Source: Bdellovibrionales bacterium (GTDB lineage: Bacteria; Bdellovibrionota; Bdellovibrionia; Bdellovibrionales; UBA1609). Taken from it: DNA of 64,000 bases. Where the stretch lies: contig CBDHDF010000007.1 of NCBI GenBank assembly GCA_965261545.1, forward strand, positions 256,001-320,000, read 5' to 3'. Numbering within the stretch: the stretch's first letter is position 1; every line of letters starts with the position of its first letter. The translations under genes were made by a program, and so were the position numbers. The notes beneath the pieces were generated by a model that did no database searches, was not told where the DNA came from, and saw only the letters and a program-made list of their open reading frames with translations. Positions 1 through 58,881 of the stretch are shown piece by piece.

Positions 1-793
1 GCAAAGGAAACTCTTCTGAACTCACCTTTGATTCATGCTGACGAAACTGGAGTGAATGTTAATGGGAAGAGGCTGTGGTTTCACCTCTTGTCCAATGATA
101 CTGTGGTTCTCTATCAGGTGGACGAAAAAAGAGGCGCAGAGGCTATGGATCGCATGGGAATTCTTCCAAAATACACAGGGATTGTTTGTCATGACCATTG
201 GAAACCTTATTATACATATACTTCCTGCATTCATGCCCTTTGCAATGCGCACCATTTAAGGGAGCTTCAAAGAGCTTGGGAGCAAGATGATCAAAAATGG
301 GCAAAAGAAATGAAGTCTCTTTTAGAGACAATAAACAAAGAGGTGCACGATACGCAGAACCAATGCCTTTCACAAGACCGAATTGAATATTACAAAGAGA
401 AATATCGAAATATTCTCTTCGAAGGGGAAAAGGAATCTCCATTAATGGAGAGGACAGAGAAAAAAAAGAAGGGAAAGGTTAAACAATCCAAATCTAGAAA
501 TTTACTAGATCGACTGAGAAACTTTGAAGATGATACCTTGCTCTTTATGAAGGACCCCATAGTTCCATTTACGAATAATATAGCAGAAAATGATCTGAGA
601 ATGACCAAAGTTCAGCAGAAAATATCTGGGTGCTTTCGTTCGTTGATGGGAGCCAAGACATTTTGTAGAAACCGAAGCTTTCTCCTGACTTGCCAGAAAA
701 ATGGCATAGAACCTAAAGATGCTCTAAATATGCTATTTCAAGGAAAACTTCCCTCATTTATGACTCGAATTCGCCCACCCCCTGAATAGTTAC
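1..793 (+). mobile_element. IS66-family element (single-ORF ISBst12-like), 3' part with right TIR; runs off the window start
   Basis: ORF to 789 has IS66 motifs HADETG, HDHWKPY, LCNAHHLREL, FTNNIAENDLR and KISGCFRS; ends ccccctgaatagttac (GTAA-type TIR). Confidence 0.93.
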
Positions 794-6946: not shown

Positions 6947-7189
6947 TAAGTAAATTAAGAGATTAAACCATGGTTTTTTTATGGGTAAAGTAATGAGGGG
7001 GATAAATCATGGAAATTGAATTATTTTCTTGGTTTTTAATGCGGTAATTCTGCGACGTCGAAATTAGGCCCATTTTCTGTTGAGAAACTCGGATATACCC
7101 CAAAATATCATAGAGAGTCTTCTTCTTGCTTCATTAGCGGCTCACCTCACATCAAGTGTTGTTTTGAGGATAGGAAGAACTAAAGTAAC

Positions 7190-10100
7190 ATTCATGGGGG
7201 CGCCTTGCTTCCCCACCCACGCCCATGAATCTTATCTAGGCCCCCACTTCTTTGCACGAAGCAACTCGGTGGACAGCTTCGCTGGTCTATATAATTGGCC
7301 TCTTTTAGTTACTCTGGACTTTTGATGGTATTTTTGTCATGTATGATTCCGATACAATAAAGGATAAAGCAATAACATTATTGGAAGGTGATAAGATGAG
7401 TGGCCGTTGAATAGATTGGTAATTTTAATTCCGTGAAGTAACATGGTCTTGAGCTTTGGATCGAACCCACGCATGTACCTGCACTCTGAGTGTATGGACG
7501 TATAGTAAGTTGACCTATTTTCGCTTTAGAATTTATGGCAAAATCCCAAGGCTCTAGTTTTATCACCTTCTTTTTTTCTAACAGAAAGGAGGAGTCATGT
7601 GGATATTATTTATAGTTCTGTTTGTGGAATAGATGTTCATCAACATATGTTGATGTGTACGATTGTCAAAGTGGAAGACGGTAAGAAGAAGTTTTTCACA
7701 AAAGAGTTCAAGAATTTTCCAAAAAATTTTCCTAGAATGCGCTCTTGGATGAAGCCACATAAGGTTGAGAGAGTTCTTTTTGAGAGCACAGGGATTTATT
7801 GGAATTCTTTATACGATGATTTGACAGAAAAAGGTTATGAAGTAGATGTTATCAATGCCTTTCATGTCAAAAATATTACTGGTAAAAAAACTGACGTGTT
7901 GGATAGCCAGTGGATTGCAGAGCTTGGTGCTTGTGGTCTTCTAAGAGCTAGCTTCATTCCTCCACGTGAGATTCGTTCTATTAGACTTTTGGCTCGTTAT
8001 CGTACAAAAACGATCCGCCAAATATCTTCGGAACAAAATCGTATGTATAAGGTTCTTGAATATTCGCATTCGTTTAACATTCATGGGGGCGCCTTGCTTC
8101 CCCACCCACGCCCATGAATCTTATCTAGGCCCCCACTTCTTTGCACGAAGCAACTCGGTGGACAGCTTCGCTGGTCTATATAATTGGCCTCTTTTAGTTA
8201 CTCTGGACTTTTGATGGTATTTTTGTCATGTATGATTCCGATACAATAAAGGATAAAGCAATAACATTATTGGAAGGTGATAAGATGAGTGGCCGTTGAA
8301 TAGATTGGTAATTTTAATTCCGTGAAGTAACATGGTCTTGAGCTTTGGATCGAACCCACGCATGTACCTGCACTCTGAGTGTATGGACGTATAGTAAGTT
8401 GACCTATTTTCGCTTTAGAATTTATGGCAAAATCCCAAGGCTCTAGTTTTATCACCTTCTTTTTTTCTAACAGAAAGGAGGAGTCATGTGGATATTATTT
8501 ATAGTTCTGTTTGTGGAATAGATGTTCATCAACATATGTTGATGTGTACGATTGTCAAAGTGGAAGACGGTAAGAAGAAGTTTTTCACAAAAGAGTTCAA
8601 GAATTTTCCAAAAAATTTTCCTAGAATGCGCTCTTGGATAAAGCCACATAAGGTTGAGAGAGTTCTTTTTGAGAGCACAGGGATTTATTGGAATTCTTTA
8701 TACGATGATTTGACAGAAAAAGGTTATGAAGTAGATGTTATCAATGCCTTTCATGTCAAAAATATTACTGGTAAAAAAACTGACGTGTTGGATAGCCAGT
8801 GGATTGCAGAGCTTGGTGCTTGTGGTCTTCTAAGAGCTAGCTTCATTCCTCCACGTGAGATTCGTTCTATTAGACTTTTGGCTCGTTATCGTACAAAAAC
8901 GATCCGCCAAATATCTTCGGAACAAAATCGTATGTATAAGGTTCTTGAATATTCAGGCATTCGTTTAACCTATGCAATGTCTAAAGCTGACTGCGTATCT
9001 GGTATGGCCATGATTCGTGCCATAGCTAATGGAGAGAGATCAGTTTCTAAATTGATGTCTCTTGCCAGAGGGTCTTTACGTCAAAAGACCGAAGAATTTT
9101 CTTACGCCCTGTCGGGAAAGATGACGGAAGAAAATCGTTTTGTTCTTCAACGCATTCTTGATCGAATAGATTTTTTGAAAAAAGAATGCTCTCAAATTGA
9201 AGAAGAACTTTTCATTCGTATGAAACCCTATGAAAGGCAGTGGCATCTACTCCAGACTATACCTGGAATTGACGAATTAAGTGCAGCGCTTTTGATTGCA
9301 GAAATAGGAGGCAATGTGAAGTCTTTTAAAAATAAAGGAAATTTTTGCTCCTGGATGGGGATTTGCCCATCCAATAATGAGAGCGCAGGAAAAAAAGTCT
9401 TCACGAACGAGGAAAGCGAACACATATGTGAAATCGTTGGTATGTGAGATGGCCAATAGTGCTATTAAGACGAATTCACAATTCAAAGGCAAATACCAAT
9501 CACTTGTTATAAGGCGTGGGCACAAGAGATCAGTGATTGCCGTTGGTCACAAAATGATGGGAGTTGTTTATTCAGTCATAAGTAATGACACCCCCTACAA
9601 AGACCCTGGAATTGACTATGAAAAGCTCATGGTGAAAAAAAATGCACCAAGGTGGATTAGAGCGTTAAAAAAGTATGATTTCATGTAATGTAGGATGATT
9701 TAAAAACTCGGACATTTGAAAAAATTCGAAGAACGGATAGTGGATTCGTGCGTCCAAACTACCCCGGAGATTCATAGTAACCTATGCAATGTCTAAAGCT
9801 GACTGCGTATCTGGTATGGCCATGATTCGTGCCATAGCTAATGGAGAGAGATCAGTTTCTAAATTGATGTCTCTTGCCAGAGGGTCTTTACGTCAAAAGA
9901 CCGAAGAATTTTCTTACGCCCTGTCGGGAAAGATGACGGAAGAAAATCGTTTTGTTCTTCAACGCATTCTTGATCGAATAGATTTTTTGAAAAAAGAATG
10001 CTCTCAAATTGAAGAAGAACTTTTCATTCGTATGAAACCCTATGAAAGGCAGTGGCATCTACTCCAGACTATACCTGGAATTGACGAATTAAGTGCAGCG

Positions 10101-10593
10101 CTTTTGATTGCAGAAATAGGAGGCAATGTGAAGTCTTTTAAAAATAAAGGAAATTTTTGCTCCTGGATGGGGATTTGCCCATCCAATAATGAGAGCGCAG
10201 GAAAAAAAGTCTTCACGAACGAGGAAAGCGAACACATATGTGAAATCGTTGGTATGTGAGATGGCCAATAGTGCTATTAAGACGAATTCACAATTCAAAG
10301 GCAAATACCAATCACTTGTTATAAGGCGTGGGCACAAGAGATCAGTGATTGCCGTTGGTCACAAAATGATGGGAGTTGTTTATTCAGTCATAAGTAATGA
10401 CACCCCCTACAAAGACCCTGGAATTGACTATGAAAAGCTCATGGTGAAAAAAAATGCACCAAGGTGGATTAGAGCGTTAAAAAAGTATGATTTCATGTAA
10501 TGTAGGATGATTTAAAAACTCGGACATTTGAAAAAATTCGAAGAACGGATAGTGGATTCGTGCGTCCAAACTACCCCGGAGATTCATAGTAAA
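7190..10593 (+). mobile_element. IS110 copy A, interrupted at 8078/9782 by copy B
   Basis: Left end attcatgggggcgcc after gtaac; coding sequence resumes ctatgcaatg at 9782; right end ggagattcatagtaa. Confidence 0.9.
8079..9781 (+). mobile_element. IS110 copy B, self-inserted into copy A recombinase; A7 frameshift allele
   Basis: Junctions cgtttaac|attcatgg and catagtaac|ctatgc; ORFs 8488-9447 and 9377-9688. Confidence 0.9.
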
Positions 10594-10810
10594 CTACCCC
10601 GGAGATTCATAGTAACATTCATGGGGGCGCCTTGCTTCCCCACCCACGCCCATGAATCTTATCTAGGCCCCCACTTCTTTGCACGAAGCAACTCGGTGGA
10701 CAGCTTCGCTGGTCTATATAATTGGCCTCTTTTAGTTACTCTGGACTTTTGATGGTATTTTTGTCATGTATGATTCCGATACAATAAAGGATAAAGCAAT
10801 AACATTATTG

Positions 10811-10997
10811 GAAGGTGATAAGATGAGTGGCCGTTGAATAGATTGGTAATTTTAATTCCGTGAAGTAACATGGTCTTGAGCTTTGGATCGAACCCACGCA
10901 TGTACCTGCACTCTGAGTGTATGGACGTATAGTAAGTTGACCTATTTTCGCTTTAGAATTTATGGCAAAATCCCAAGGCTCTAGTTTTATCACCTTC
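10811..10997 (+). ncRNA. Putative IS110 bridge RNA (present in all six copies)
   Basis: Closing stem gaaggtgataaga/ttttatcaccttc; two stem-internal-loop-hairpin modules whose loops match the target (tgaatag, agtaac) and donor (atagtaa). Folded by eye; ends approximate. Confidence 0.7.
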
Positions 10998-11025
10998 TTT
11001 TTTTCTAACAGAAAGGAGGAGTCAT

Positions 11026-12228
11026 GTGGATATTATTTATAGTTCTGTTTGTGGAATAGATGTTCATCAACATATGTTGATGTGTACGATTGTCAAAGTG
11101 GAAGACGGTAAGAAGAAGTTTTTCACAAAAGAGTTCAAGAATTTTCCAAAAAATTTTCCTAGAATGCGCTCTTGGATGAAGCCACATAAGGTTGAGAGAG
11201 TTCTTTTTGAGAGCACAGGGATTTATTGGAATTCTTTATACGATGATTTGACAGAAAAAGGTTATGAAGTAGATGTTATCAATGCCTTTCATGTCAAAAA
11301 TATTACTGGTAAAAAAACTGACGTGTTGGATAGCCAGTGGATTGCAGAGCTTGGTGCTTGTGGTCTTCTAAGAGCTAGCTTCATTCCTCCACGTGAGATT
11401 CGTTCTATTAGACTTTTGGCTCGTTATCGTACAAAAACGATCCGCCAAATATCTTCGGAACAAAATCGTATGTATAAGGTTCTTGAATATTCAGGCATTC
11501 GTTTAACCTATGCAATGTCTAAAGCTGACTGCGTATCTGGTATGGCCATGATTCGTGCCATAGCTAATGGAGAGAGATCAGTTTCTAAATTGATGTCTCT
11601 TGCCAGAGGGTCTTTACGTCAAAAGACCGAAGAATTTTCTTACGCCCTGTCGGGAAAGATGACGGAAGAAAATCGTTTTGTTCTTCAACGCATTCTTGAT
11701 CGAATAGATTTTTTGAAAAAAGAATGCTCTCAAATTGAAGAAGAACTTTTCATTCGTATGAAACCCTATGAAAGGCAGTGGCATCTACTCCAGACTATAC
11801 CTGGAATTGACGAATTAAGTGCAGCGCTTTTGATTGCAGAAATAGGAGGCAATGTGAAGTCTTTTAAAAATAAAGGAAATTTTTGCTCCTGGATGGGGAT
11901 TTGCCCATCCAATAATGAGAGCGCAGGAAAAAAAAAGTCTTCACGAACGAGGAAAGCGAACACATATGTGAAATCGTTGGTATGTGAGATGGCCAATAGT
12001 GCTATTAAGACGAATTCACAATTCAAAGGCAAATACCAATCACTTGTTATAAGGCGTGGGCACAAGAGATCAGTGATTGCCGTTGGTCACAAAATGATGG
12101 GAGTTGTTTATTCAGTCATAAGTAATGACACCCCCTACAAAGACCCTGGAATTGACTATGAAAAGCTCATGGTGAAAAAAAATGCACCAAGGTGGATTAG
12201 AGCGTTAAAAAAGTATGATTTCATGTAA
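11026..12228 (+). CDS. IS110-family DEDD recombinase (400 aa)
   Basis: GIDVH, FESTGIYW, KKTDVLDSQWIA (DEDD); TIPGIDELSAALLIAEIG; NESAGK serine motif; RBS aaaggagg. Confidence 0.95.
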   Translation: MDIIYSSVCGIDVHQHMLMCTIVKVEDGKKKFFTKEFKNFPKNFPRMRSWMKPHKVERVLFESTGIYWNSLYDDLTEKGYEVDVINAFHVKNITGKKTDVLDSQWIAELGACGLLRASFIPPREIRSIRLLARYRTKTIRQISSEQNRMYKVLEYSGIRLTYAMSKADCVSGMAMIRAIANGERSVSKLMSLARGSLRQKTEEFSYALSGKMTEENRFVLQRILDRIDFLKKECSQIEEELFIRMKPYERQWHLLQTIPGIDELSAALLIAEIGGNVKSFKNKGNFCSWMGICPSNNESAGKKKSSRTRKANTYVKSLVCEMANSAIKTNSQFKGKYQSLVIRRGHKRSVIAVGHKMMGVVYSVISNDTPYKDPGIDYEKLMVKKNAPRWIRALKKYDFM

Positions 12229-12321
12229 TGTAGGATGATTTAAAAACTCGGACATTTGAAAAAATTCGAAGAACGGATAGTGGATTCGTGCGTCCAAACT
12301 ACCCCGGAGATTCATAGTAAC

Positions 12322-14026
12322 ATTCATGGGGGCGCCTTGCTTCCCCACCCACGCCCATGAATCTTATCTAGGCCCCCACTTCTTTGCACGAAGCAACTCG
12401 GTGGACAGCTTCGCTGGTCTATATAATTGGCCTCTTTTAGTTACTCTGGACTTTTGATGGTATTTTTGTCATGTATGATTCCGATACAATAAAGGATAAA
12501 GCAATAACATTATTGGAAGGTGATAAGATGAGTGGCCGTTGAATAGATTGGTAATTTTAATTCCGTGAAGTAACATGGTCTTGAGCTTTGGATCGAACCC
12601 ACGCATGTACCTGCACTCTGAGTGTATGGACGTATAGTAAGTTGACCTATTTTCGCTTTAGAATTTATGGCAAAATCCCAAGGCTCTAGTTTTATCACCT
12701 TCTTTTTTTCTAACAGAAAGGAGGAGTCATGTGGATATTATTTATAGTTCTGTTTGTGGAATAGATGTTCATCAACATATGTTGATGTGTACGATTGTCA
12801 AAGTGGAAGACGGTAAGAAGAAGTTTTTCACAAAAGAGTTCAAGAATTTTCCAAAAAATTTTCCTAGAATGCGCTCTTGGATGAAGCCACATAAGGTTGA
12901 GAGAGTTCTTTTTGAGAGCACAGGGATTTATTGGAATTCTTTATACGATGATTTGACAGAAAAAGGTTATGAAGTAGATGTTATCAATGCCTTTCATGTC
13001 AAAAATATTACTGGTAAAAAAACTGACGTGTTGGATAGCCAGTGGATTGCAGAGCTTGGTGCTTGTGGTCTTCTAAGAGCTAGCTTCATTCCTCCACGTG
13101 AGATTCGTTCTATTAGACTTTTGGCTCGTTATCGTACAAAAACGATCCGCCAAATATCTTCGGAACAAAATCGTATGTATAAGGTTCTTGAATATTCAGG
13201 CATTCGTTTAACCTATGCAATGTCTAAAGCTGACTGCGTATCTGGTATGGCCATGATTCGTGCCATAGCTAATGGAGAGAGATCAGTTTCTAAATTGATG
13301 TCTCTTGCCAGAGGGTCTTTACGTCAAAAGACCGAAGAATTTTCTTACGCCCTGTCGGGAAAGATGACGGAAGAAAATCGTTTTGTTCTTCAACGCATTC
13401 TTGATCGAATAGATTTTTTGAAAAAAGAATGCTCTCAAATTGAAGAAGAACTTTTCATTCGTATGAAACCCTATGAAAGGCAGTGGCATCTACTCCAGAC
13501 TATACCTGGAATTGACGAATTAAGTGCAGCGCTTTTGATTGCAGAAATAGGAGGCAATGTGAAGTCTTTTAAAAATAAAGGAAATTTTTGCTCCTGGATG
13601 GGGATTTGCCCATCCAATAATGAGAGCGCAGGAAAAAAAAAGTCTTCACGAACGAGGAAAGCGAACACATATGTGAAATCGTTGGTATGTGAGATGGCCA
13701 ATAGTGCTATTAAGACGAATTCACAATTCAAAGGCAAATACCAATCACTTGTTATAAGGCGTGGGCACAAGAGATCAGTGATTGCCGTTGGTCACAAAAT
13801 GATGGGAGTTGTTTATTCAGTCATAAGTAATGACACCCCCTACAAAGACCCTGGAATTGACTATGAAAAGCTCATGGTGAAAAAAAATGCACCAAGGTGG
13901 ATTAGAGCGTTAAAAAAGTATGATTTCATGTAATGTAGGATGATTTAAAAACTCGGACATTTGAAAAAATTCGAAGAACGGATAGTGGATTCGTGCGTCC
14001 AAACTACCCCGGAGATTCATAGTAAC
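12322..14026 (+). mobile_element. IS110 copy D, intact, head-to-tail with copy C
   Basis: Junction ttcatagtaac|attcatggggg at 12311-12332; right end joins tattcagggggtg of the IS66 TIR. Confidence 0.93.
12731..13933 (+). CDS. IS110-family DEDD recombinase (400 aa)
   Basis: Same protein as 11026-12228. Confidence 0.95.
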   Translation: MDIIYSSVCGIDVHQHMLMCTIVKVEDGKKKFFTKEFKNFPKNFPRMRSWMKPHKVERVLFESTGIYWNSLYDDLTEKGYEVDVINAFHVKNITGKKTDVLDSQWIAELGACGLLRASFIPPREIRSIRLLARYRTKTIRQISSEQNRMYKVLEYSGIRLTYAMSKADCVSGMAMIRAIANGERSVSKLMSLARGSLRQKTEEFSYALSGKMTEENRFVLQRILDRIDFLKKECSQIEEELFIRMKPYERQWHLLQTIPGIDELSAALLIAEIGGNVKSFKNKGNFCSWMGICPSNNESAGKKKSSRTRKANTYVKSLVCEMANSAIKTNSQFKGKYQSLVIRRGHKRSVIAVGHKMMGVVYSVISNDTPYKDPGIDYEKLMVKKNAPRWIRALKKYDFM

Positions 14027-14254
14027 TATTCAGGGGGTGGGCGAATTCGAGTCATAAATGAGGGAAGTTTTCCTTGAAATAGCATATTTAGAGCATCTTT
14101 AGGTTCTATGCAAAATTTCACCTAGTTTGACCCACCCAATTTCACCTGGTTTGACCCACCCAATTTCACGAAGTTTGACCCACTGAATTTCACCAAACAT
14201 TGACCCACTTAGATCTTCATAGATATTCTTTCTGCGCTACGCATTAACGAGGAG

Positions 14255-15778
14255 GTGTCTATGGGCAAACAAGGTAAGAAAAAAGGAGCAAGAATGATCA
14301 ACAATATTAAGAAATACATAGAGCTTGGACTCAGTTCGAGACAAATAGCTCGAGCTATGGGTGTTAGTCGGAACACTGTGAAGAAGTATGTGAAGGATAG
14401 TCCCGGAGGCCCTAACAGCCGCTCAAAGGGGTCGCATGGGCCCTACCAAGCCCCATGGTCATCCAAGGTGAATTGGACAGATGTTCGCCTCAAGCAAAGC
14501 CTAGGGACTCAATTGGCTCATTACTGGGAGCGACATATTCAGTCCGAGATTGACGGTGTGAGTTATCTTTCTTTTTGGAGAGAGTTTCGTCGGAGGCACC
14601 CAAGTATAAAGCTTGATATGCACCAGACATTCACCCCTGGTGAACGGAGTGAGTTTGACTATAAGGGAAAAGACTCTTGTTTTGGCTATACAGATGCCAA
14701 GACTGGGGAGTTCATCCCATGTCGATTATTTGGAATGATACTTCCATCGAGTCAGTTTTTCTTTCCATGCGCCACATTAACAGAGCAGCGGGAAGATGTT
14801 TTTTCCTCCATAGCTTCTGGTTTTGAGTTTTTTGGTGGTGTGACCGGAACCATTGCTTTTGATAACGCAAAGGTTCAAGTGACAAGAGCTGATACTTATG
14901 ACCCCGATATTAACTCTGAGTTTCACCTCTTGTGTGATCACTACAATGTGGCTCCTTTGGCGATGAGGCCATCTCGCCCCAAAGACAAGAGTCTTATCGA
15001 AAATACCCTTGGAGTCTTTTGGCGCTGGTCTTGGCCCCAGATAAGAGAGCGGCAAATGTATTCTCTAGCAGACATCAACGCTGAGTTGAAGCATTTGGCA
15101 GCTATTTTCAATGATCGTATTCAAAAAAAGTATGGGTTGAGTCGTCGACAGAAGTTTGAATCTTTTGAGAAGTCAAAATTGAATCCTCTTCCTGAAAGAC
15201 GCTATGAGAGTGGATTCTGGAAGCATTCCAAGGTTCATCCGGATTGTCACATTCAATATAACTACAATTTTTACTCTGTTCCTTATAAGCATCGCGGCAA
15301 GAAGTTAGATATTCGTATTAGCCAACAATGCTTGGAGGTTTATTCAGAATTAGAGCGGGTGGCGATACATCACATCCCCCAGGGCAGTCGAGGGCGCTAC
15401 TTTACGACAAAATCTCATCTCCCTGAGTCCCACCGGGCCATTTTAGAGCAAACGCCACAAAATGTACTTAAAGAGGCATCAAGCCTTGGAGAAAGCATTC
15501 ACAAAGTTGCCGAGCGGCTTATCAAAGAGCCTCGCCATCCGCTTATGTATCTTCGTCGTGTTCAGGGGATACTCAATCTAAGAAAACGGTATTCAACAGC
15601 TTCTTTGGAGCAGGCTTGCTCATTTTTTGTAGATGCAGCTTTAAGTGACATTAGGGTTCGTGGAGTTGAGAAAGTTATTTCAGCAAAAAGTCATCGAAAA
15701 GAGGAGCCAAGAGTCTGCCGTCAACCTAATGAAAATTTAAGAGGTTCAGAGCACTGGGAGAATGCTTGCCGCCACTAA
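14255..15778 (+). CDS. istA: IS21 transposase IstA
   Basis: N-terminal HTH, PGERSEFDY, FDNAK, PKDKSLIE, YSVPY. Confidence 0.92.
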   Translation: MSMGKQGKKKGARMINNIKKYIELGLSSRQIARAMGVSRNTVKKYVKDSPGGPNSRSKGSHGPYQAPWSSKVNWTDVRLKQSLGTQLAHYWERHIQSEIDGVSYLSFWREFRRRHPSIKLDMHQTFTPGERSEFDYKGKDSCFGYTDAKTGEFIPCRLFGMILPSSQFFFPCATLTEQREDVFSSIASGFEFFGGVTGTIAFDNAKVQVTRADTYDPDINSEFHLLCDHYNVAPLAMRPSRPKDKSLIENTLGVFWRWSWPQIRERQMYSLADINAELKHLAAIFNDRIQKKYGLSRRQKFESFEKSKLNPLPERRYESGFWKHSKVHPDCHIQYNYNFYSVPYKHRGKKLDIRISQQCLEVYSELERVAIHHIPQGSRGRYFTTKSHLPESHRAILEQTPQNVLKEASSLGESIHKVAERLIKEPRHPLMYLRRVQGILNLRKRYSTASLEQACSFFVDAALSDIRVRGVEKVISAKSHRKEEPRVCRQPNENLRGSEHWENACRH

Positions 15779-15859
15779 TCACATAGCCCCGGTGGGTGGT
15801 TCTCAACCACCTAACGGGTCATTTTGACCTCCATAAGAGAGGTCGTATAGGAGAAGAAA

Positions 15860-16588
15860 ATGATTAAACAAACAGAAAATTTATTAGAGATATTAAAAAT
15901 GAGGGGAGTTTTAGCAACCTTGAGCCAGAGGCTCAAAGAAGCTGAGGAGCAGGATCTTGGTTACGAGGACTTTCTAAATGTCATCTTTGAGGACGAAAAA
16001 ATCCATCGTGAAAATCAGAAGGTCTCAAGACTTATCAAAAGAGCAGCTTTGCAGCAAAAAGCAAGCCTTGAGGCCTTTGAAACCAAATCCAACCGAGGAG
16101 TCGATCGAAGAGTTTTGAGTGATCTAGCCCTTATGAGATTTGCTCAAAGAGGTCAAAATATAATTATCTCTGGCCCAACGGGTGTTGGAAAGTCATATTT
16201 GGCTTGTGCCATAGGTAATCACGCCTGTCGCCAAGGTTTTTCCACTCAGTTCTTCAGAATGAATACTCTTGTTGAAAAATTCAACTTAGAAAGAGCCCAG
16301 GGGACATATCTAAACTTCCTTAAAAGGCTAAAATCAGTCTCGATACTTGTGTTGGATGATTTTGGTATCAAGCCCCTTACCTCTAACCAATATCAAGACC
16401 TTTACGATGTGATTGATGAACGAGGCCCTGACCTGAGCCTCATTCTTACAACCCAACTTCCAATAAAAAATTGGAGTGAAGTCATTGAGGATCCCATCGT
16501 TTGTGAAGCTATTATGGATCGCATAACCTCTCAAGCTATCAAAATAGCCATGTCTGGAAGCTCATTTAGGCAGAGAAAGACGATTTAA
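15860..16588 (+). CDS. istB: IS21 ATPase IstB
   Basis: Walker A GPTGVGKS, Walker B LVLDDFG, AIMDRI. Confidence 0.93.
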   Translation: MIKQTENLLEILKMRGVLATLSQRLKEAEEQDLGYEDFLNVIFEDEKIHRENQKVSRLIKRAALQQKASLEAFETKSNRGVDRRVLSDLALMRFAQRGQNIIISGPTGVGKSYLACAIGNHACRQGFSTQFFRMNTLVEKFNLERAQGTYLNFLKRLKSVSILVLDDFGIKPLTSNQYQDLYDVIDERGPDLSLILTTQLPIKNWSEVIEDPIVCEAIMDRITSQAIKIAMSGSSFRQRKTI

Positions 16589-16664
16589 GGAGAATCCATG
16601 CAAAGGCAGACCTTGGAAGACACCATCGGGAGACACTCCATCGGAACTATTGAATCATGTACCC

Positions 16665-16762
16665 GCCAGTTATCCACAAAATTTACCCACGGCAGCGCTG
16701 CGTTGATAGACATCGGGGTCACAGACGCAGCGTCACCATGGATAAATTTGTGGATAACTGGC
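16665..16762. repeat. Conserved 98-bp hairpin with DnaA-box arms (copy in IS21 type 1)
   Basis: gccagttatccacaaaatttacccac...atggataaatttgtggataactggc. Confidence 0.8.
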
Positions 16763-18697
16763 TCGCTATTCTCTGCCATTTTGAGCAATGGATTCAACAT
16801 CCCCATTGAAAAACCCTCCATTGAAACCTCAGAAATGGGGAGGGTCGAGATTCTCAATGACAAAGTGGCCAATTTTAGTTGGCATCTAACATTCTGGCAA
16901 ATAAGCCTTAACCCACCGTTGGGACATCGTGACATTGAGGGTGTAAAAGTTACTGAGTCAGCAGAAAAAAGAAGGTTTAAATTGACAAAGTTTGAGCCAC
17001 CGTGAAATTCAAAATTGGACCTCAAATTGACTGACTGAGGGGTGGGTCAAACTTCGTGAAATTCAGTGGGTCAAACTCGTGAAATTCAGCATCTATGCCA
17101 TTTTTCTGGCAAGTCAGGAGAAAGCTTCGGTTTCTACAAAATGTCTTGGCTCCCATCAACGAACGAAAGCACCCAGATATTTTCTGCTGAACTTTGGTCA
17201 TTCTCAGATCATTTTCTGCTATATTATTCGTAAATGGAACTATGGGGTCCTTCATAAATAGCAAGGTATCATCTTCAAAGTTTCTCAGTCGATCTAGTAA
17301 ATTTCTAGATTTGGATTGTTTAACCTTTCCCTTCTTTTTTTTCTCTGTCCTCTCCATTAATGGAGATTCCTTTTCCCCTTCGAAGAGAATATTTCGATAT
17401 TTCTCTTTGTAATATTCAATTCGGTCTTGTGAAAGGCATTGGTTCTGCGTATCGTGCACCTCTTTGTTTATTGTCTCTAAAAGAGACTTCATTTCTTTTG
17501 CCCATTTTTGATCATCTTGCTCCCAAGCTCTTTGAAGCTCCCTTAAATGGTGCGCATTGCAAAGGGCATGAATGCAGGAAGTATATGTATAATAAGGTTT
17601 CCAATGGTCATGACAAACAATCCCTGTGTATTTTGGAAGAATTCCCATGCGATCCATAGCCTCTGCGCCTCTTTTTTCGTCCACCTGATAGAGAACCACA
17701 GTATCATTGGACAAGAGGTGAAACCACAGCCTCTTCCCATTAACATTCACTCCAGTTTCGTCAGCATGAATCAAAGGTGAGTTCAGAAGAGTTTCCTTTG
17801 CCCACTCCTCAAAAGCTTCCAGAGCCTCAAATGTTAGCTGACAATTAAAATGCCCCACCGTCGCCAATGAAAAGTGGCCACTTTTCAGAGGAGGACCTAT
17901 GGTGATTTTTGGCATTGTCAACCGAGACGCATATAATCAATTGATATTACTCATAAAAAGGCTCCGAGCTGATAAGAACTCCTTTTGGGTTCTTGTCGAC
18001 CTGGAAAGGGGCTCCGTGTTGGAGAGTCCTTCCATGACAGCCTATTCAGGTTCCATATTTGTCATTTGTAGACTGTTTCTGGATTTCAATGAGGTTAAAT
18101 ATATAGTCAAGAAAAGCCTGTTTAGGCTGTGCCCATTTTCTAAAGTATTTAAATTCCACAAGATTCCAACATTTGCCTCAATTTTCATGGAATTTCTTTT
18201 TGAAGACAGGCTTCCCTTAAAGCCGTCGCCAATTAAAATGTCCCACTTTCAATATGGAGGTTGTCGCCAATGAAAAGTGACCAATCTTCAGGGAGTGTTC
18301 AAATACTAGACAATGAAGTCTCTTCTTCTGATATAGATACTAAGCTCACAGAGTCCCTCCCTTTTGCAACTCAAAAGGTTAGCAATGAGGAGGATCTTAT
18401 GATTAGTCAATACACTTTCGGCCGCATTCGTGACCTGAGTCACAGTGGTAAAAATAAGACAGAAATATCTCGTGAATTAGGGATCAATCGTAAGACGGTG
18501 CGCAAGTACTGTAAGTCCAACACCCCACCGAAGTACAAGGCGAGGTCCAAAAGAACTCGCCCAGATCCCCTTAATGGATATATGGATCGGGTGCATAGGT
18601 GTTCGTGGTTTTTTTCTAATTTTAATTCCGAATTAATGGAAATACTTTTCAAGCCTCCTTTTTTACATAGAGGGAAGTGGGCGATTTATAAATATTT

Positions 18698-18800
18698 GTA
18701 ACTGTTCAGGGGGTAGCAGAGTTCAAGAGGTAAATTGCTCCTTCTTACCAGAGAAAATATAAATCTCTCTCTGTAAACTCATGCCCCCCTGAATAGATAC
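18698..18800. mobile_element. 103-bp IS66-derived MITE
   Basis: Ends gtaactgttcaggggg / ccccctgaatagatac; 8-bp TSD aaatattt; absent from the paralogous site near 3780. Confidence 0.9.
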
Positions 18801-19450: not shown

Positions 19451-20695
19451 ATGAGCACGGAAGCTCAAACACTTAAAACGATCAAAAAATGTTTCAAGAA
19501 AGTTATTCCTGAAAAGGACTCTCGGGCAACCATTCCACCTCTTGAGTTTATTGTGGCTCTTGTCTTGTCATTCCAGGGAGACTCTAAGACATATTCAATA
19601 GAGGGAATTAGGAGGTTTATGATAAGTCATTTAGGATTAAGAATTGAAAGACACAGCTTCTGGGAAAGACTCTCTAGAAAAAGATTAAAAGAGCTTCTGA
19701 GTAAACTGGTTGAAATGCTCATGATAAAGCTATCTCATGGAGCTTTTCATGGGAGCAAAGCCATATTATTACAACTGGGAGTCTCAGACGTTCTTCTTGT
19801 TGACTCAAGCACAATAAGCCTTTGGGATGGAGCATCTGAGAATTTTCCAGGGACAAGAACAAACGCAGGAATTAAATGGCACGCTTGTTTCAGTTTATTC
19901 AGTGGTATAATGACTTGGTTCGAATTAACTCCGTCTTCCACTAACGATAGGAAGTGCTTTCCTGATATAAAGGAACTCGTTGGAAAATTAGTCATCTTTG
20001 ATTTGGGATATTGGGACTATGGCTTATTGTCATCTATTCATGAAGCTAAAGGATTTTTCTTGTCTAGAGTGAAGTCAAATGCCTCTATTCTTATTGATGC
20101 TGTTGTTGAAGGTTTGCCAGATTACTATGTTGGAAAAGAGTTCTCTGATATTAAACTCAAGAAAAAAAACGATGTTGTTGAATTTATAGGCAGTGTCTTG
20201 TCCAATGGTAAATGGGTAAGTTTGAGAATTGTAGGCTTCTGGAATTCCTCCGAAAAACGCTATCATTGGTATTGCACGAATTTAGATGTGGCAGCGGAGT
20301 CCATATATCCAATTTATCGTTTACGTTGGCAATGTGAACTTATTTTCAAATCTTGTAAGAATTCTTTGAATGCAAATCAGATCACCTCAAACGATCAAAA
20401 TATCATAGAGAGTCTTCTTCTTGCTTCATTAGCGGCTCACCTCACATCAAGTGTTGTTTTGAGGATAGGAAGAACTAAACTCAATAAGGAACAAAATGAC
20501 TCCACATCGTTTCAAAGAGTTGCTAAGGTTACCGTCTTATTAGCCTCTGATTTTATCAAATATCTCCTAAGCTCATCTCAAAAGTATTTAAATATTTTGA
20601 TAGAGAAGATCAAGATATTCTCCCATGAAATTTATGACACAAACTACCGACGGCGAAAAACATCAATGAATATGGCTAAAAAGGTCTTGCTATGA
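19451..20695 (+). CDS. IS4-family transposase (414 aa)
   Basis: VDSSTI, IFDLGYW, YRLRWQCELIFK (YREK motif). Confidence 0.93.
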   Translation: MSTEAQTLKTIKKCFKKVIPEKDSRATIPPLEFIVALVLSFQGDSKTYSIEGIRRFMISHLGLRIERHSFWERLSRKRLKELLSKLVEMLMIKLSHGAFHGSKAILLQLGVSDVLLVDSSTISLWDGASENFPGTRTNAGIKWHACFSLFSGIMTWFELTPSSTNDRKCFPDIKELVGKLVIFDLGYWDYGLLSSIHEAKGFFLSRVKSNASILIDAVVEGLPDYYVGKEFSDIKLKKKNDVVEFIGSVLSNGKWVSLRIVGFWNSSEKRYHWYCTNLDVAAESIYPIYRLRWQCELIFKSCKNSLNANQITSNDQNIIESLLLASLAAHLTSSVVLRIGRTKLNKEQNDSTSFQRVAKVTVLLASDFIKYLLSSSQKYLNILIEKIKIFSHEIYDTNYRRRKTSMNMAKKVLL

Positions 20696-27096: not shown

Positions 27097-29650
27097 CAAT
27101 GGCATTCGTTTAGTGAGAGATCCCATTCGGTTAAGGATTTGAACCTCTAACTCCTCGGGGGTGGGCTAACCCCAAGTTTTTTTCTTTGATCCATGTGATT
27201 ATCCGTTGGCCATAGCCCCCCTAACCTCTTTACTGGGTCTCCATACTCCGATGGGTTTTCTAGAAACTCGGTCGTAATGCCTATTCGGACGTAGCCTTTG
27301 TCGGCAGGTCTTCATATTTGTAATGATGCAATTGAGGGTTTTACTAAGCACTACCTTTTGTTGAAGAAAAAGACCTTCAATATTTCTTGCAATTGTCAGT
27401 AAATTGTTTTTAAAGTTTGTCTGCATGGTTTGTTTTTTACTATGGGATTGAGATGTATTAAGACGGTCTTCCGTGTAGTTGGAAAATAATCTTGTCAGAG
27501 TGATAAGTGTGAAGTGTGCAAACAATTCTTGTTTGACTCCCCTTTCACTTTGAGAATGAAACTCTTCAATGGTCATCAGTTCTTTGGATATTTTGTACAG
27601 TTCCTCTATACTCCAGCGTCCATGATAGAGATTGGCCAGATCATCAATGGAATATTTTTTTTGATCCATTAAGGTTGTTCCTAGAACAAAAGTAGTTTGT
27701 CCAATTTTATATTTGACCAAACGCAAAGCGTAGGCTTTGAAGTCGTCTTGTGGCTTTTTTTTATGTAGTTCTTTCAGAATTTGCTTGCTAGGAATGACTT
27801 GGATCACTGAGTCTTTTTGATCATTATTAATAAATTCATCAAAAACAGTGTTGGCATTTCTCCTTATCCTAAACACCGCATGCAGACTTCGCACCTTATG
27901 CTCATGAAGCATTTCGTAGGAATAATAGCCACGATCATAAACCACAACATCGTTTTCAAACAATTTTTTGAAATGAGTTTGTGCAGCCTTTCTCTCATTG
28001 TTATGGGCAAAGAGATCAAAATCCACAGGAATCTTCGACTGTAGTTGGTACAGGCAACTGACAAGACCTTGAGGGTACCATGCTTTTTCCCATGGTTGCT
28101 GATACCCATTATCTACGAGTTGACGTGGTAAATTTATTTTCGATCCATCCACTGCGAAAACCTTATGGCCCTTCCATAAGGTACTAGAATTGGATATACC
28201 GTCTTGTTTAAGAATTTCATCATGCAAAACTTTAAATATATTTTCATCTACTTTAGCCCGTGCACTACACATAGTGGATGCCCGAACTGGTTTAGGTTGA
28301 GGGAGTTCAATGTCTAATATGCGACACTGCTCCCAAAGTTCAATCAAAGTTGTATCATAACCTTGTTTTCCTTTAGAGAAAACAAGTCGGAAGATGAAAA
28401 GTATAATCAACAATGTATTCAAGACACGTTGACGCTTTTGCCAGGTTCGGTCGTACTCATCTGCAATGATAACCACTGTCTTGATGATGTTTTGCCAAAG
28501 ATGCACAAAAGAGTCCTCTAGCATAGGCTCAGCCAAGTTCTTATGTGGCTTGATGGTGGGTTTCCCGACGGGTTTCTTGATAGCGCATTGGGGGCCATTC
28601 AATAAGATAGACTGATAATTCTTTGTCAGAGGTTGAACATAAACACCTTTTTGAGTTTTTCCCTTTACATTTTTGTAGGCACGACTCCCATTTGTTTTGC
28701 CCAAATAAAGCCAGTTGGCAGCACGATAGCTCGTGGCATTAAATTTGGTAAGGTCGACAAAAGTCTCCATGAGTACAGGTTTGAAAGCATGTTTTAACTC
28801 CCAGTCTGTGGGAAGTTGGCGAGTTGCCATAGATAAAGCCATCGAAGCAAGATGGCGAACCTTTACCCAGGGAAAGATCAAAAATCGACTATTGTTCACC
28901 ACTAAATTCAAGTGCTTTTTGTAAGCTCGATTTTGCCAACCGATCCATTCATCACGGCAAGGCAAAGTGGATGTGCCAGCTTCAAATAAAAGACAACCCA
29001 ATCTTCGCCCACAATTATCTAAGATGAAATAGCGTAAGTGGGGACCAAAGGGACGTCTGTAATTGAGATAATGATGCCGATCGACAACTTCATTCCATTC
29101 CTTAATGGCCTCTTGATCAGTTACGATTTGCAAAGAAAGTGGGGTCAATGAGTCTAGTTTATCGTTGATGAGAGGCTTTTCATCTGTTCGGTGTGTCCAA
29201 GTGATTTTTTTGGAGGGGACACTCCGCTTTGACATGTCTTTTTCTGGCAGGGATAGAATGTCAAGTTCCTCTAGCGTCTCAAGCATACGAAGGCACGATT
29301 GGATGCGATGATCACCTTTGGGAGTTAGCCAACCAAGATGTTCACAAACTGTATAACCCAGTTCACGGCGACTTAAAGAAGGAAATAGCGCCACCGTCTT
29401 TTGAATGTCGGCAATTTGCTTGCGCGTCAAGCGTCTTCCAAAAAAAGTTGTTGAAGGCAATGTCTCTATGCGTGGGTCCATTTGAGTCTCTCCCCTTTGG
29501 GAATGGTTCAAATATAATGTGACACAACGATGGGGTGGACTCAAGTATTTTTTTTCGGAAAAAGAAAAAAGATAAAAGCCCCCTTAACTCAGTATGTTAG
29601 AGGGAGTCAGAAAAATGTGGAAAAACCTTCTGCAAAAACGAATGCCATTG
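27097..29650 (-). mobile_element. IS4-family element type 3 (2554 bp)
   Basis: TIRs caatggcattcgttt; 10-bp TSD cctgtacgcc (27087-27096 and 29651-29660). Confidence 0.92.
27199..29481 (-). CDS. DUF4338-like domain fused to IS4 transposase (~760 aa)
   Basis: N-half HHYL, RDEWIGW, VVNNSRFLIFPW, ETFVD, YRAANW..LG.T.G; C-half AVDGS, VYDRGY, YHGRWSIEELYK. Confidence 0.85.
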   Translation of the reverse strand: MDPRIETLPSTTFFGRRLTRKQIADIQKTVALFPSLSRRELGYTVCEHLGWLTPKGDHRIQSCLRMLETLEELDILSLPEKDMSKRSVPSKKITWTHRTDEKPLINDKLDSLTPLSLQIVTDQEAIKEWNEVVDRHHYLNYRRPFGPHLRYFILDNCGRRLGCLLFEAGTSTLPCRDEWIGWQNRAYKKHLNLVVNNSRFLIFPWVKVRHLASMALSMATRQLPTDWELKHAFKPVLMETFVDLTKFNATSYRAANWLYLGKTNGSRAYKNVKGKTQKGVYVQPLTKNYQSILLNGPQCAIKKPVGKPTIKPHKNLAEPMLEDSFVHLWQNIIKTVVIIADEYDRTWQKRQRVLNTLLIILFIFRLVFSKGKQGYDTTLIELWEQCRILDIELPQPKPVRASTMCSARAKVDENIFKVLHDEILKQDGISNSSTLWKGHKVFAVDGSKINLPRQLVDNGYQQPWEKAWYPQGLVSCLYQLQSKIPVDFDLFAHNNERKAAQTHFKKLFENDVVVYDRGYYSYEMLHEHKVRSLHAVFRIRRNANTVFDEFINNDQKDSVIQVIPSKQILKELHKKKPQDDFKAYALRLVKYKIGQTTFVLGTTLMDQKKYSIDDLANLYHGRWSIEELYKISKELMTIEEFHSQSERGVKQELFAHFTLITLTRLFSNYTEDRLNTSQSHSKKQTMQTNFKNNLLTIARNIEGLFLQQKVVLSKTLNCIITNMKTCRQRLRPNRHYDRVSRKPIGVWRPSKEVRGAMANG

Positions 29651-55161: not shown

Positions 55162-55412
55162 CATAGGTGTTCGTGGTTTTTTATTCTTTCATAGCAAGAC
55201 CTTTTTAGCCATATTCATTGATGTTTTTCGCCGTCGGTAGTTTGTGTCATAAATTTCATGGGAGAATATCTTGATCTTCTCTATCAAAATATTTAAATAC
55301 TTTTGAGATGAGCTTAGGAGATATTTGATAAAATCAGAGGCTAATAAGACGGTAACCTTAGCAACTCTTTGAAACGATGTGGAGTCATTTTGTTCCTTAT
55401 TGAGTTTAGTTC
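55162..55412 (-). mobile_element. 3' part and right TIR of IS4 passenger element copy 1
   Basis: Reverse complement of about 20472-20722. Confidence 0.9.
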
Positions 55413-55417
55413 GTAAC

Positions 55418-57125
55418 ATTCATGGGGGCGCCTTGCTTCCCCACCCACGCCCATGAATCTTATCTAGGCCCCCACTTCTTTGCACGAAGCAACTCGGTGG
55501 ACAGCTTCGCTGGTCTATATAATTGGCCTCTTTTAGTTACTCTGGACTTTTGATGGTATTTTTGTCATGTATGATTCCGATACAATAAAGGATAAAGCAA
55601 TAACATTATTGGAAGGTGATAAGATGAGTGGCCGTTGAATAGATTGGTAATTTTAATTCCGTGAAGTAACATGGTCTTGAGCTTTGGATCGAACCCACGC
55701 ATGTACCTGCACTCTGAGTGTATGGACGTATAGTAAGTTGACCTATTTTCGCATTATTTTAGAATTTATGGCAAAATCCCAAGGCTCTAGTTTTATCACC
55801 TTCTTTTTTTCTAACAGAAAGGAGGAGTCATGTGGATATTATTTATAGTTCTGTTTGTGGAATAGATGTTCATCAACATATGTTGATGTGTACGATTGTC
55901 AAAGTGGAAGACGGTAAGAAGAAGTTTTTCACAAAAGAGTTCAAGAATTTTCCAAAAAATTTTCCTAGAATGCGCTCTTGGATGAAGCCACATAAGGTTG
56001 AGAGAGTTCTTTTTGAGAGCACAGGGATTTATTGGAATTCTTTATACGATGATTTGACAGAAAAAGGTTATGAAGTAGATGTTATCAATGCCTTTCATGT
56101 CAAAAATATTACTGGTAAAAAAACTGACGTGTTGGATAGCCAGTGGATTGCAGAGCTTGGTGCTTGTGGTCTTCTAAGAGCTAGCTTCATTCCTCCACGT
56201 GAGATTCGTTCTATTAGACTTTTGGCTCGTTATCGTACAAAAACGATCCGCCAAATATCTTCGGAACAAAATCGTATGTATAAGGTTCTTGAATATTCAG
56301 GCATTCGTTTAACCTATGCAATGTCTAAAGCTGACTGCGTATCTGGTATGGCCATGATTCGTGCCATAGCTAATGGAGAGAGATCAGTTTCTAAATTGAT
56401 GTCTCTTGCCAGAGGGTCTTTACGTCAAAAGACCGAAGAATTTTCTTACGCCCTGTCGGGAAAGATGACGGAAGAAAATCGTTTTGTTCTTCAACGCATT
56501 CTTGATCGAATAGATTTTTTGAAAAAAGAATGCTCTCAAATTGAAGAAGAACTTTTCATTCGTATGAAACCCTATGAAAGGCAGTGGCATCTACTCCAGA
56601 CTATACCTGGAATTGACGAATTAAGTGCAGCGCTTTTGATTGCAGAAATAGGAGGCAATGTGAAGTCTTTTAAAAATAAAGGAAATTTTTGCTCCTGGAT
56701 GGGGATTTGCCCATCCAATAATGAGAGCGCAGGAAAAAAAGTCTTCACGAACGAGGAAAGCGAACACATATGTGAAATCGTTGGTATGTGAGATGGCCAA
56801 TAGTGCTATTAAGACGAATTCACAATTCAAAGGCAAATACCAATCACTTGTTATAAGGCGTGGGCACAAGAGATCAGTGATTGCCGTTGGTCACAAAATG
56901 ATGGGAGTTGTTTATTCAGTCATAAGTAATGACACCCCCTACAAAGACCCTGGAATTGACTATGAAAAGCTCATGGTGAAAAAAAATGCACCAAGGTGGA
57001 TTAGAGCGTTAAAAAAGTATGATTTCATGTAATGTAGGATGATTTAAAAACTCGGACATTTGAAAAAATTCGAAGAACGGATAGTGGATTCGTGCGTCCA
57101 AACTACCCCGGAGATTCATAGTAAC
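55418..57125 (+). mobile_element. IS110 copy E (A7 frameshift; 5-bp insertion near 55753)
   Basis: Same ends as copy C; ORFs 55832-56791 and 56721-57032. Confidence 0.92.
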
Positions 57126-57177
57126 TCTTTGAAACGATGTGGAGTCATTTTGTTCCTTATTGAGTTTAGTTCGTAAC

Positions 57178-58881
57178 ATTCATGGGGGCGCCTTGCTTCC
57201 CCACCCACGCCCATGAATCTTATCTAGGCCCCCACTTCTTTGCACGAAGCAACTCGGTGGACAGCTTCGCTGGTCTATATAATTGGCCTCTTTTAGTTAC
57301 TCTGGACTTTTGATGGTATTTTTGTCATGTATGATTCCGATACAATAAAGGATAAAGCAATAACATTATTGGAAGGTGATAAGATGAGTGGCCGTTGAAT
57401 AGATTGGTAATTTTAATTCCGTGAAGTAACATGGTCTTGAGCTTTGGATCGAACCCACGCATGTACCTGCACTCTGAGTGTATGGACGTATAGTAAGTTG
57501 ACCTATTTTCGCTTTAGAATTTATGGCAAAATCCCAAGGCTCTAGTTTTATCACCTTCTTTTTTTCTAACAGAAAGGAGGAGTCATGTGGATATTATTTA
57601 TAGTTCTGTTTGTGGAATAGATGTTCATCAACATATGTTGATGTGTACGATTGTCAAAGTGGAAGACGGTAAGAAGAAGTTTTTCACAAAAGAGTTCAAG
57701 AATTTTCCAAAAAATTTTCCTAGAATGCGCTCTTGGATGAAGCCACATAAGGTTGAGAGAGTTCTTTTTGAGAGCACAGGGATTTATTGGAATTCTTTAT
57801 ACGATGATTTGACAGAAAAAGGTTATGAAGTAGATGTTATCAATGCCTTTCATGTCAAAAATATTACTGGTAAAAAAACTGACGTGTTGGATAGCCAGTG
57901 GATTGCAGAGCTTGGTGCTTGTGGTCTTCTAAGAGCTAGCTTCATTCCTCCACGTGAGATTCGTTCTATTAGACTTTTGGCTCGTTATCGTACAAAAACG
58001 ATCCGCCAAATATCTTCGGAACAAAATCGTATGTATAAGGTTCTTGAATATTCAGGCATTCGTTTAACCTATGCAATGTCTAAAGCTGACTGCGTATCTG
58101 GTATGGCCATGATTCGTGCCATAGCTAATGGAGAGAGATCAGTTTCTAAATTGATGTCTCTTGCCAGAGGGTCTTTACGTCAAAAGACCGAAGAATTTTC
58201 TTACGCCCTGTCGGGAAAGATGACGGAAGAAAATCGTTTTGTTCTTCAACGCATTCTTGATCGAATAGATTTTTTGAAAAAAGAATGCTCTCAAATTGAA
58301 GAAGAACTTTTCATTCGTATGAAACCCTATGAAAGGCAGTGGCATCTACTCCAGACTATACCTGGAATTGACGAATTAAGTGCAGCGCTTTTGATTGCAG
58401 AAATAGGAGGCAATGTGAAGTCTTTTAAAAATAAAGGAAATTTTTGCTCCTGGATGGGGATTTGCCCATCCAATAATGAGAGCGCAGGAAAAAAAGTCTT
58501 CACGAACGAGGAAAGCGAAACACATATGTGAAATCGTTGGTATGTGAGATGGCCAATAGTGCTATTAAGACGAATTCACAATTCAAAGGCAAATACCAAT
58601 CACTTGTTATAAGGCGTGGGCACAAGAGATCAGTGATTGCCGTTGGTCACAAAATGATGGGAGTTGTTTATTCAGTCATAAGTAATGACACCCCCTACAA
58701 AGACCCTGGAATTGACTATGAAAAGCTCATGGTGAAAAAAAATGCACCAAGGTGGATTAGAGCGTTAAAAAAGTATGATTTCATGTAATGTAGGATGATT
58801 TAAAAACTCGGACATTTGAAAAAATTCGAAGAACGGATAGTGGATTCGTGCGTCCAAACTACCCCGGAGATTCATAGTAAC
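57178..58881 (+). mobile_element. IS110 copy F (frameshifted)
   Basis: Same ends; right end joins tattcagggggtg of the IS66 left TIR. Confidence 0.92.

Follow-up and report, generated by a model that had tools for sequence, protein, structure and literature searches.

An IS110-group element with a predicted bridge RNA matching the terminal repeat of a resident IS66 element in a Bdellovibrionales genome

The window analyzed here is a 64,000-nucleotide stretch from a Bdellovibrionales bacterium (contig CBDHDF010000007.1, positions 256,001 to 320,000; G000:C7:256001-320000 in our numbering, G000 being the genome under study), and a protein-domain survey found it crowded with insertion sequence (IS) elements. 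It contains two arrays of an IS110-family element, located at the two ends of what appears to be one IS66 element. We think it very probable, on sequence evidence, that this is an IS110-group bridge recombinase element whose non-coding RNA is tuned to the resident IS66 (IS66-A), namely to the first 11 bp of its terminal repeat; this IS66 has a single open reading frame (ORF). The insertion does not break the IS66 repeat; the IS110 element sits between the 8-bp duplication made by IS66 and the IS66 end itself. The features that define this arrangement are the following.

7177-7184, plus strand: IS66 8-bp target duplication GAACTAAA, copy outside array 1
7185-14026, plus strand: IS110 array 1, four copies' worth, at the IS66 right end (right inverted repeat, IRR)
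14022-14039, plus strand: IS66 right terminal repeat, complete, rebuilt at the inner joint
14022-17831, minus strand: IS66 nt 893-1715, interrupted by IS21 (about 14109-17091)
55405-55412, minus strand: IS66 8-bp target duplication in inverted orientation, found again at 57165-57172
55413-58881, plus strand: IS110 array 2, two copies (a flank-plus-element duplication), at the IS66 left end (left inverted repeat, IRL)
58877-59772, plus strand: IS66 nt 1-897, with the left terminal repeat complete (58877-58894)
20472-20479, plus strand: IS66 landing site, empty allele in another copy of the host repeat
776-793, minus strand: right terminal repeat, empty, of another IS66-A copy that is itself intact (G000:C7:255079-256793)

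Reading the window directly, we find GTAAC at 7185-7189 and 55413-55417, with TATTCAGGGGGTG beginning at 14027 and 58882, so the array boundaries agree with those of the initial annotation of this DNA, as does the position of the empty end, which lies on the minus strand. That annotation also placed the 8-bp duplication of IS66 directly outside the arrays. This holds as well: GAACTAAA is a genuine duplication, since the empty allele of the host repeat is seen within the window and 27 more copies of that repeat run on with CTCAAT. The duplication pairs the outer ends of both IS110 arrays. The IS66 halves are complementary, and a single IS21-like element cuts both at nt 893-897, one with each of its ends. 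Because the halves are complementary and cut at the same five bases, and because the duplication lies on the outer IS110 ends, we infer that they are a single IS66 split by inversion, in keeping with the earlier claim that both arrays belong to one IS66. What goes too far is the description of occupied repeats and a hyperparasite, insofar as it implies damage. The arrays are indeed at IS66 ends, but GTAAC flanks every array on both sides, including the inner side (14022-14026 and 58877-58881), and the whole 18-bp repeat is present at the inner joint.

IS66-A is 1715 bp long, and its one ORF encodes an IS66 DDE transposase (PF03050, NF033517). We take it to belong to the ISBst12 group. Terminal repeats beginning GTAA and an 8-bp target duplication are hallmarks of the IS66 family. 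When 52 ends were compared, IS66-A showed 13 perfect 8-bp duplication pairs, four with both ends occupied by IS110, five with one end occupied and four with none. In the nine insertions with an occupied end, the perfect duplication is kept outside the IS110 left end. The genome also contains a family of mini-elements of about 103 bp with IS66-A-like ends and 8-bp duplications (for example C7:274698-274800, window 18698-18800), several copies of which ride in a larger repeat with identical flanks.

Across the genome we counted 37 IS110 right ends: 10 form head-to-tail joints, six lead into the element itself, three belong to flank duplications, and 18 lead elsewhere. Of these last, 16 adjoin an IS66-A terminal repeat, which is whole in 13 cases, later split by another IS in two (C7:121233 and C7:226781) and a remnant in one (C2:85454). 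The remaining two are on non-IS66 words with 0 and 1 mismatch. The initial annotation had proposed tabulating these flanks, and an excess of copies at unrelated sites, which would have spoken against it, is absent. Its further proposal, a count of occupied and empty ends, gives 15/32 for IS66-A (7/17 left, 8/15 right) against 0/31 for a second IS66, IS66-B (Fisher p 7e-6, the ends not being fully independent). IS66-B ends begin with the same GTAAC but differ at two or three of the next seven guided bases. The exact 11-bp target word, GTAACTATTCA, occurs 36 times in the genome, 33 times in IS66-A-type ends, in accord with the suggestion that targets multiply as IS66 spreads. One of the three exact words outside IS66 is occupied, which fits recognition by sequence only. 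In a paralogous pair (C2:559493 and 591667), a mini-element end also appears to have been hit once. Separately, at C2:466049 and C11:702539 an IS110 left end is joined on one side only to other repeats, at their native GTAA|C and TTA|T sites; no partner joints were found for either, and they resemble half-match events.

The candidate guide RNA lies in the non-coding DNA upstream of the recombinase gene of the intact reference copy, as follows.

12317-12364, plus strand: IS110 left end; resembles an IS66-type terminal repeat and has the sequence of a 51-bp mini-element; 8-bp subterminal repeat ATGAATCT at 12357-12364
12400-12464, plus strand: 65-bp patch sharing 93-97% identity with the DNA upstream of a multi-copy DDE element
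12534-12580, plus strand: predicted target-binding loop, with outer stem 12534-38 paired with 12576-80 and an inner hairpin
12540-12546, plus strand: 5' guide TGAATAG, the reverse complement of CTATTCA (IS66 repeat nt 5-11)
12570-12575, plus strand: 3' guide GTAA (nt 1-4 of the repeat, AA core included) and the handshake dinucleotide CA
12634-12640, plus strand: donor guide ATAGTAA, with the sequence of the right end of the element, 14019-14025 (7/7)
12731-13933, plus strand: IS110 recombinase, 400 aa, with D12, E62, D99, D102 and S299 present
14013-14020, plus strand: right subterminal repeat AGATTCAT

Taken together, the guides of the predicted loop read GT|AA|CTATTCA, the first 11 bp of the IS66 repeat. 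This 2+2+7 layout is the 7+2+2 layout of IS621 read on the strand opposite the recombinase gene, and a target-binding internal loop that matches both target strands, here a computational prediction, is what the IS110 family would be expected to show. The loop structure was set by eye on an alignment of relatives with 34-48% identity, drawn from 162 loci (160 + 2). Upstream DNA was sufficient in 135 of the 162; with the window copy added, 91/136 upstream regions match the profile and 68/136 were parsed. The loop stems pair in 91.8% of cells and show changes on both sides in 5/10 pairs, above shuffled and slid controls. A single-sequence fold (z -2.4) recovered the outer frame and not the guide loop. 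An early reading took TGAGCTT as the guide and was dropped once the relatives had fixed the loop.

With the window element excluded, the guide positions covary with the flanks of the relatives. The reverse complement of the 5' loop strand matches the right flank at 2.61 of 6 bases compared to 1.67 (n=40; 0/10000 permutations), and the 3' strand, read in the same orientation as the DNA, agrees with the left flank at 2.81 compared to 1.85 (n=21; 0/10000). Crossed controls, in which each strand was set against the other flank, were both at the null level, and a smaller set agrees. The dinucleotide after the invariant AA of the 3' strand equals the first two bases of the left end in 17/17 elements, spanning six dinucleotides. 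In PMC13626964, the handshake guide adjoins the core-pairing guide, and the dinucleotide match is the behavior expected of such a guide. The relatives are not independent, so these covariation figures overstate significance. A relative in public run X6 keeps TGAATAG while 10 listed neighboring positions differ; in run X5, from a separate study, 340 identical bases extend from the 3' part of the element through the 18-bp repeat. Runs X1 and X2, from which this genome may have been derived, are not independent of it, and an X2 contig that crosses IS110 and IS66 was rejected as a single-copy state, its depth being 4-9x that of unique pieces.

The recombinase itself has the domains of the family. 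It matches PF01548 and PF02371 and scores 245.5 bits against NF033542 (cut-off 140), and its D12, E62, D99, D102 and S299 align to IS621, giving a DEDD RuvC-like domain and a Tnp domain with the catalytic serine. The unit has 409 nt of non-coding DNA upstream of the gene and about 90 nt downstream, and IS110 makes no target duplication, as is usual for the family. According to PMC11208160 and PMC11187229, the IS110 group has its long non-coding end upstream of the gene, with enzymes of 395-455 aa in IS110's own subgroup. By its upstream non-coding end and its 400 aa, the element belongs to the IS110 group; the downstream long non-coding end and 330-350-aa enzyme of the IS1111 group are absent. 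An 8-bp subterminal inverted-repeat pair is present, its left copy about 40 bp inside the element, compared to IS1111-group repeats of 7-17 bp near both ends. The order of the guides is of the other type: in PMC11187229, the top-strand match comes first in IS1111 elements and second in IS110 elements, and here the top-strand guide is 5', the IS1111-type order, despite the upstream RNA and the 400-aa enzyme. A literature search on the guide order found nothing. GTAAC is common to both joints, and AA is invariant in the guides of 28 aligned elements. The left end has no Rfam match and no sigma-70 consensus promoter. The DDE element's upstream region, which the 65-bp patch resembles, holds a TATAAT, and the patch is possibly a captured promoter.

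Just after the S299 codon, an A run (13632-13640) varies among copies, with A9, which is in frame, in 14, A7 in 18 and A8 in three. Control homopolymer runs are invariant (35/35 and 37/37), and A7 as a read error, suspected at first, was dropped on that account. Of seven close relatives, three are likewise cut here; the variation was not visible in public-run contigs. It may reflect a slippage switch or a defective lineage complemented in trans.

These observations suggest how the element most probably uses IS66. RNA would be produced from the upstream region, and the recombinase-RNA complex would bind the donor joint, which is present in the assembly solely as head-to-tail joints, together with any GTAACTATTCA. 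The 5' strand of the target loop would pair with the seven repeat bases CTATTCA and the 3' strand with GT and the AA core only, so that nothing outside IS66 would be needed. Strand exchange at the AA core would place the element between the 8-bp duplication and the IS66 end, rebuilding the IS66 end on the inside and leaving a look-alike end outside, and the cycle could then repeat. Head-to-tail arrays would arise by repeated insertion or by duplication from the right-end half site, and every new IS66 copy would offer two fresh sites. The boundaries, the occupancy, the duplications, the rebuilt repeat, the guide match and the covariation in relatives are direct observations; RNA expression, the recombination steps and the continued mobility of IS66 are what we deduce from them.

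The joints are consistent with this scheme. Of 26 outer left ends examined, 25 start with GTAAC, and joints at TTAA, AAG or AT sites confine the crossover to the AA of repeat nt 3-4. It is because the site lies at nt 3-4 that the whole repeat is rebuilt inside, and because the element's right end finishes GTAA a perfect target is present once more at the inner joint. A rebuilt IS66 end that is also a target would explain the arrays, whose copies are arranged as follows.

7185-8078, plus strand: array 1 copy A, nt 1-896, broken at an internal TAA site by copy B
8075-9781, plus strand: array 1 copy B, inside copy A; A7 frameshift variant
9778-10592, plus strand: array 1 copy A, nt 893-1709, followed by a 19-bp right-end duplication (10593-10611)
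10612-12321, plus strand: array 1 copy C, intact, ORF 11026-12228
12317-14026, plus strand: array 1 copy D, the intact IS110 used as reference; unit of 1705 bp, GTAAC at each end

In array 1 the nested copy entered at TAA|CCTATG, and the array also carries the 19-bp right-end duplication; in array 2, a CAA|CTCTTTG site is the starting point for a duplication of 54 bp of flank and the element. A shared nested insertion, at nt 1176-1185, occurs in both orientations, which we read as a hot spot. The paper 10.64898/2026.08.14.744561 describes tandem IS110 duplication bounded by the right-end half site only.

Several observations weigh against guidance of this element to IS66 by its RNA. IS66 targeting is known from one element only, with no readable insertion site in any close relative, and the covariation draws on dependent relatives, with the loop parsed in the 68/136 upstream regions given above. 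One core position is mispaired by the guide. In the rest of the clade the match of the 5' guide is weak, at about 2.6/6 bases, and on the donor side the test of a second guide was null (2.94 vs 2.88, n=16) and the donor-loop dinucleotide matched in 4/29. The distal 3' guide TGAA is unmatched by the flanks (0.93 at occupied ends vs 1.0 at empty ones), although the model needs this, because the DNA outside IS66 ends varies. Finally, ends of the 100-bp mini-elements, with one mismatch or an AT core, are empty at 10 + 8 ends (5 + 3 distinct flanks).

Those empty, near-perfect mini-element ends would also suit a different account, in which the recombinase is drawn to IS66 ends by the IS66 transposase or by a DNA feature there, the 7-nt match being incidental. 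Some 7-mer match does arise in 657/20000 shuffles of the 409-nt region. But the observed match falls in the very slot that covaries with flanks in 40 relatives, for which the chance is about 2e-4, two insertions lie at matching words outside any IS66, and IS66-B ends are unused. We regard recruitment by protein or structure as very improbable. It is also unlikely, if somewhat less so, that the arrays and odd joints are long-read assembly artifacts and that only the single insertions are real. The head-to-tail joint is not among the listed matches in four public contig sets, a further point against our interpretation, although contigs show presence and not absence; the arrays therefore rest on this assembly, and some of its joints recur in neighboring segments (C7:228836 and 230887). 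The odd joints, however, are at or within 1-2 bases of the element's AA core, joined to AA-containing sites. The invariant homopolymer controls and the precedent for tandem duplication with right-end-only boundaries argue against it as well.

A further possibility is compatible with RNA-guided insertion at IS66 ends. The IS110 left end may itself act as an IS66 repeat, such that IS110-IS66 composites were moved as units by the IS66 transposase and some ends inherited their IS110 rather than receiving it anew; we hold this as a tentative idea, on balance doubtful. The left end, GTAACATTCATGGGGG, differs from the first 16 bases of the repeat in having lost one base and gained another. Three mini-elements (44-51 bp) built from the left end lie between perfect 8-bp duplications (3/3 examined), which IS110 recombination does not make and which point to a DDE enzyme, most simply that of IS66. 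Three degenerate hybrid ends join the first 16-20 bp of the left end to IS66 or mini-element interiors (C2:856129, C6:298118 and C2:284802), and the flanks of occupied ends show no bias toward the distal guide. Against this, no composite haplotype is common to two loci: three adjacent IRR-only composites differ in their IS66 or IS110 variants, weak evidence given that the copies are mosaic. Neither haplotypes nor the partners of one-sided joints supported composite copying. The duplication outside IS110 is predicted with or without such movement. The likeness of the left end to an IS66 end may also be incidental, because its frame, TCATG..CACCC..ATGAA, is clade-wide. If the left end does work as an IS66 end, a broader picture can be drawn, which we offer as speculative and rather improbable as a whole: a non-damaging hitchhiker docks at the IS66 tip, the repeat is rebuilt inside and its own left end supplies a second working IS66 repeat outside. 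The element would be carried as IS66 cargo while the site stays open, a two-enzyme unit without target loss, from a widespread 400-aa clade whose bridge RNA has the polarity opposite to that of IS621.

Six non-autonomous IS110 derivatives of about 105 bp retain both ends (C11:725851, C6:3544, C3:20865, C2:233621, C2:289236 and C10:576451). They sit at a decayed IS66-A left end, related mini-element ends and near-target words, which suggests that such targeting also took place in an older round. The subterminal repeats of these derivatives vary in concert (ATGAATGT/ACATTCAT), and several begin AA-CC, matching the handshake bases CC of the run X6 relative.

Targeting of another transposon's terminal inverted repeats is not new to the IS110 family. 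Partridge and Hall reportedly showed in 2003 that IS4321 and IS5075, of the IS1111 group, do so, and IS4321 is said to interrupt the 38-bp repeat and block movement. The initial annotation drew this analogy, and it is apt for the choice of transposon ends; the present element is of the IS110 group, though its guides are in IS1111-type order, and it differs in its 400-aa enzyme, upstream non-coding region, IS66 target and site at repeat nt 3-4. Set against PMC11208160 and PMC13626964, it resembles IS621 in its RuvC-like DEDD and serine domains, an upstream RNA with the target loop followed by the donor guide, an 11-bp 7+2+2 target, a 2-nt core at both boundaries and a handshake dinucleotide next to the core-pairing guide. 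Unlike IS621, it has 400 rather than 328 aa, a core of AA (TT on the other strand) rather than CT, sites on the strand opposite the gene, and a target that is an IS end rather than a REP sequence and is rebuilt by insertion. ISEc21 (PMC11187229) likewise has an upstream guide RNA aimed at another IS family (the IS3 transposase coding region), but it breaks its host gene and has its top-strand guide 3' of the bottom-strand one, whereas here the top-strand guide is 5'. The asymmetric tolerance of the arms, half-match events and tandem duplication from a right-end half site are shared with ISPpu10 and expanding IS110 loci in 10.64898/2026.03.19.712850, 10.64898/2026.08.14.744561 and 10.64898/2026.08.31.748434, the first of which makes ISPpu10 a precedent for one lax and one strict arm.

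We found no description of an IS66-end target for IS110 in the literature covered, which includes PMC11187229 supplements; subscription literature, ISfinder notes and bioRxiv supplements may hold a precedent. The initial annotation likewise knew of no description of the pairing. The concept, IS110-family targeting of transposon ends, is known, and only the pairing and its details appear to be new. The pairing alone would be modest news; its value lies in the rebuilt repeat, the self-renewing target, the possible IS66-like left end and a loop of opposite polarity supported by covariation. It offers a clean natural example of a bridge RNA that has been retuned to the end of another transposon, with the untouched second IS66 as an internal negative control. 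It runs counter to the stated rule that the target is not regenerated by IS110 insertion, and provides a simple route to arrays. The covariation, chiefly the handshake match, defines how the loop is laid out in a large and little-studied clade of 400-aa enzymes, one with opposite polarity and an AA/TT core, making the clade directly testable as programmable recombinases. Were the left end to work as an IS66 end, this would be cooperation between two unrelated transposition systems and not plain parasitism.

Relatives were sought widely. A single-protein scan of genome contigs gave no close relatives with readable flanks; among relatives, 2/40 had matches, at 32-33% identity, and close relatives numbered 0/108 in the family, 0/383 in the order by DNA and 0/400 in a phylum sample. 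Plasmid relatives were all below 60% identity and viral-contig relatives at 32-40% (13 loci); relatives of 65-80% identity were found as proteins. The joint pattern occurs at 49 loci in viral contigs, none with an IS110 or IS66 protein, and these were set aside as chance matches. IS66 matches occur in the flanks of 6/162 relative loci. One candidate with IS110 beside a truncated IS66 (L003 in G029) was rejected, having the opposite orientation and no terminal-repeat joint by eye. In Methylomarinum (L065, L074 and L077) a low-specificity relative lies inside the IS66 transposase coding region, not at the IS66 end (L074 and L077). In Terriglobia (L084, L085, L087 and L088) a relative lies inside the left part of a larger element, presumably IS1380-like, whose ends start CCCGGATT; a unit of about 3.3 kb recurs there at several loci, the relative being carried as cargo.

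Two further features of the window are worth recording. Nt 893-897 of IS66-A is an insertion hot spot for the IS21-like element, with two copies in opposite orientations (window 17831 and 59772; G000 C7:390788-394090). At 27199-29544 on the minus strand, a 781-aa ORF encodes a Druantia DruA domain and, after it, a DDE transposase domain.

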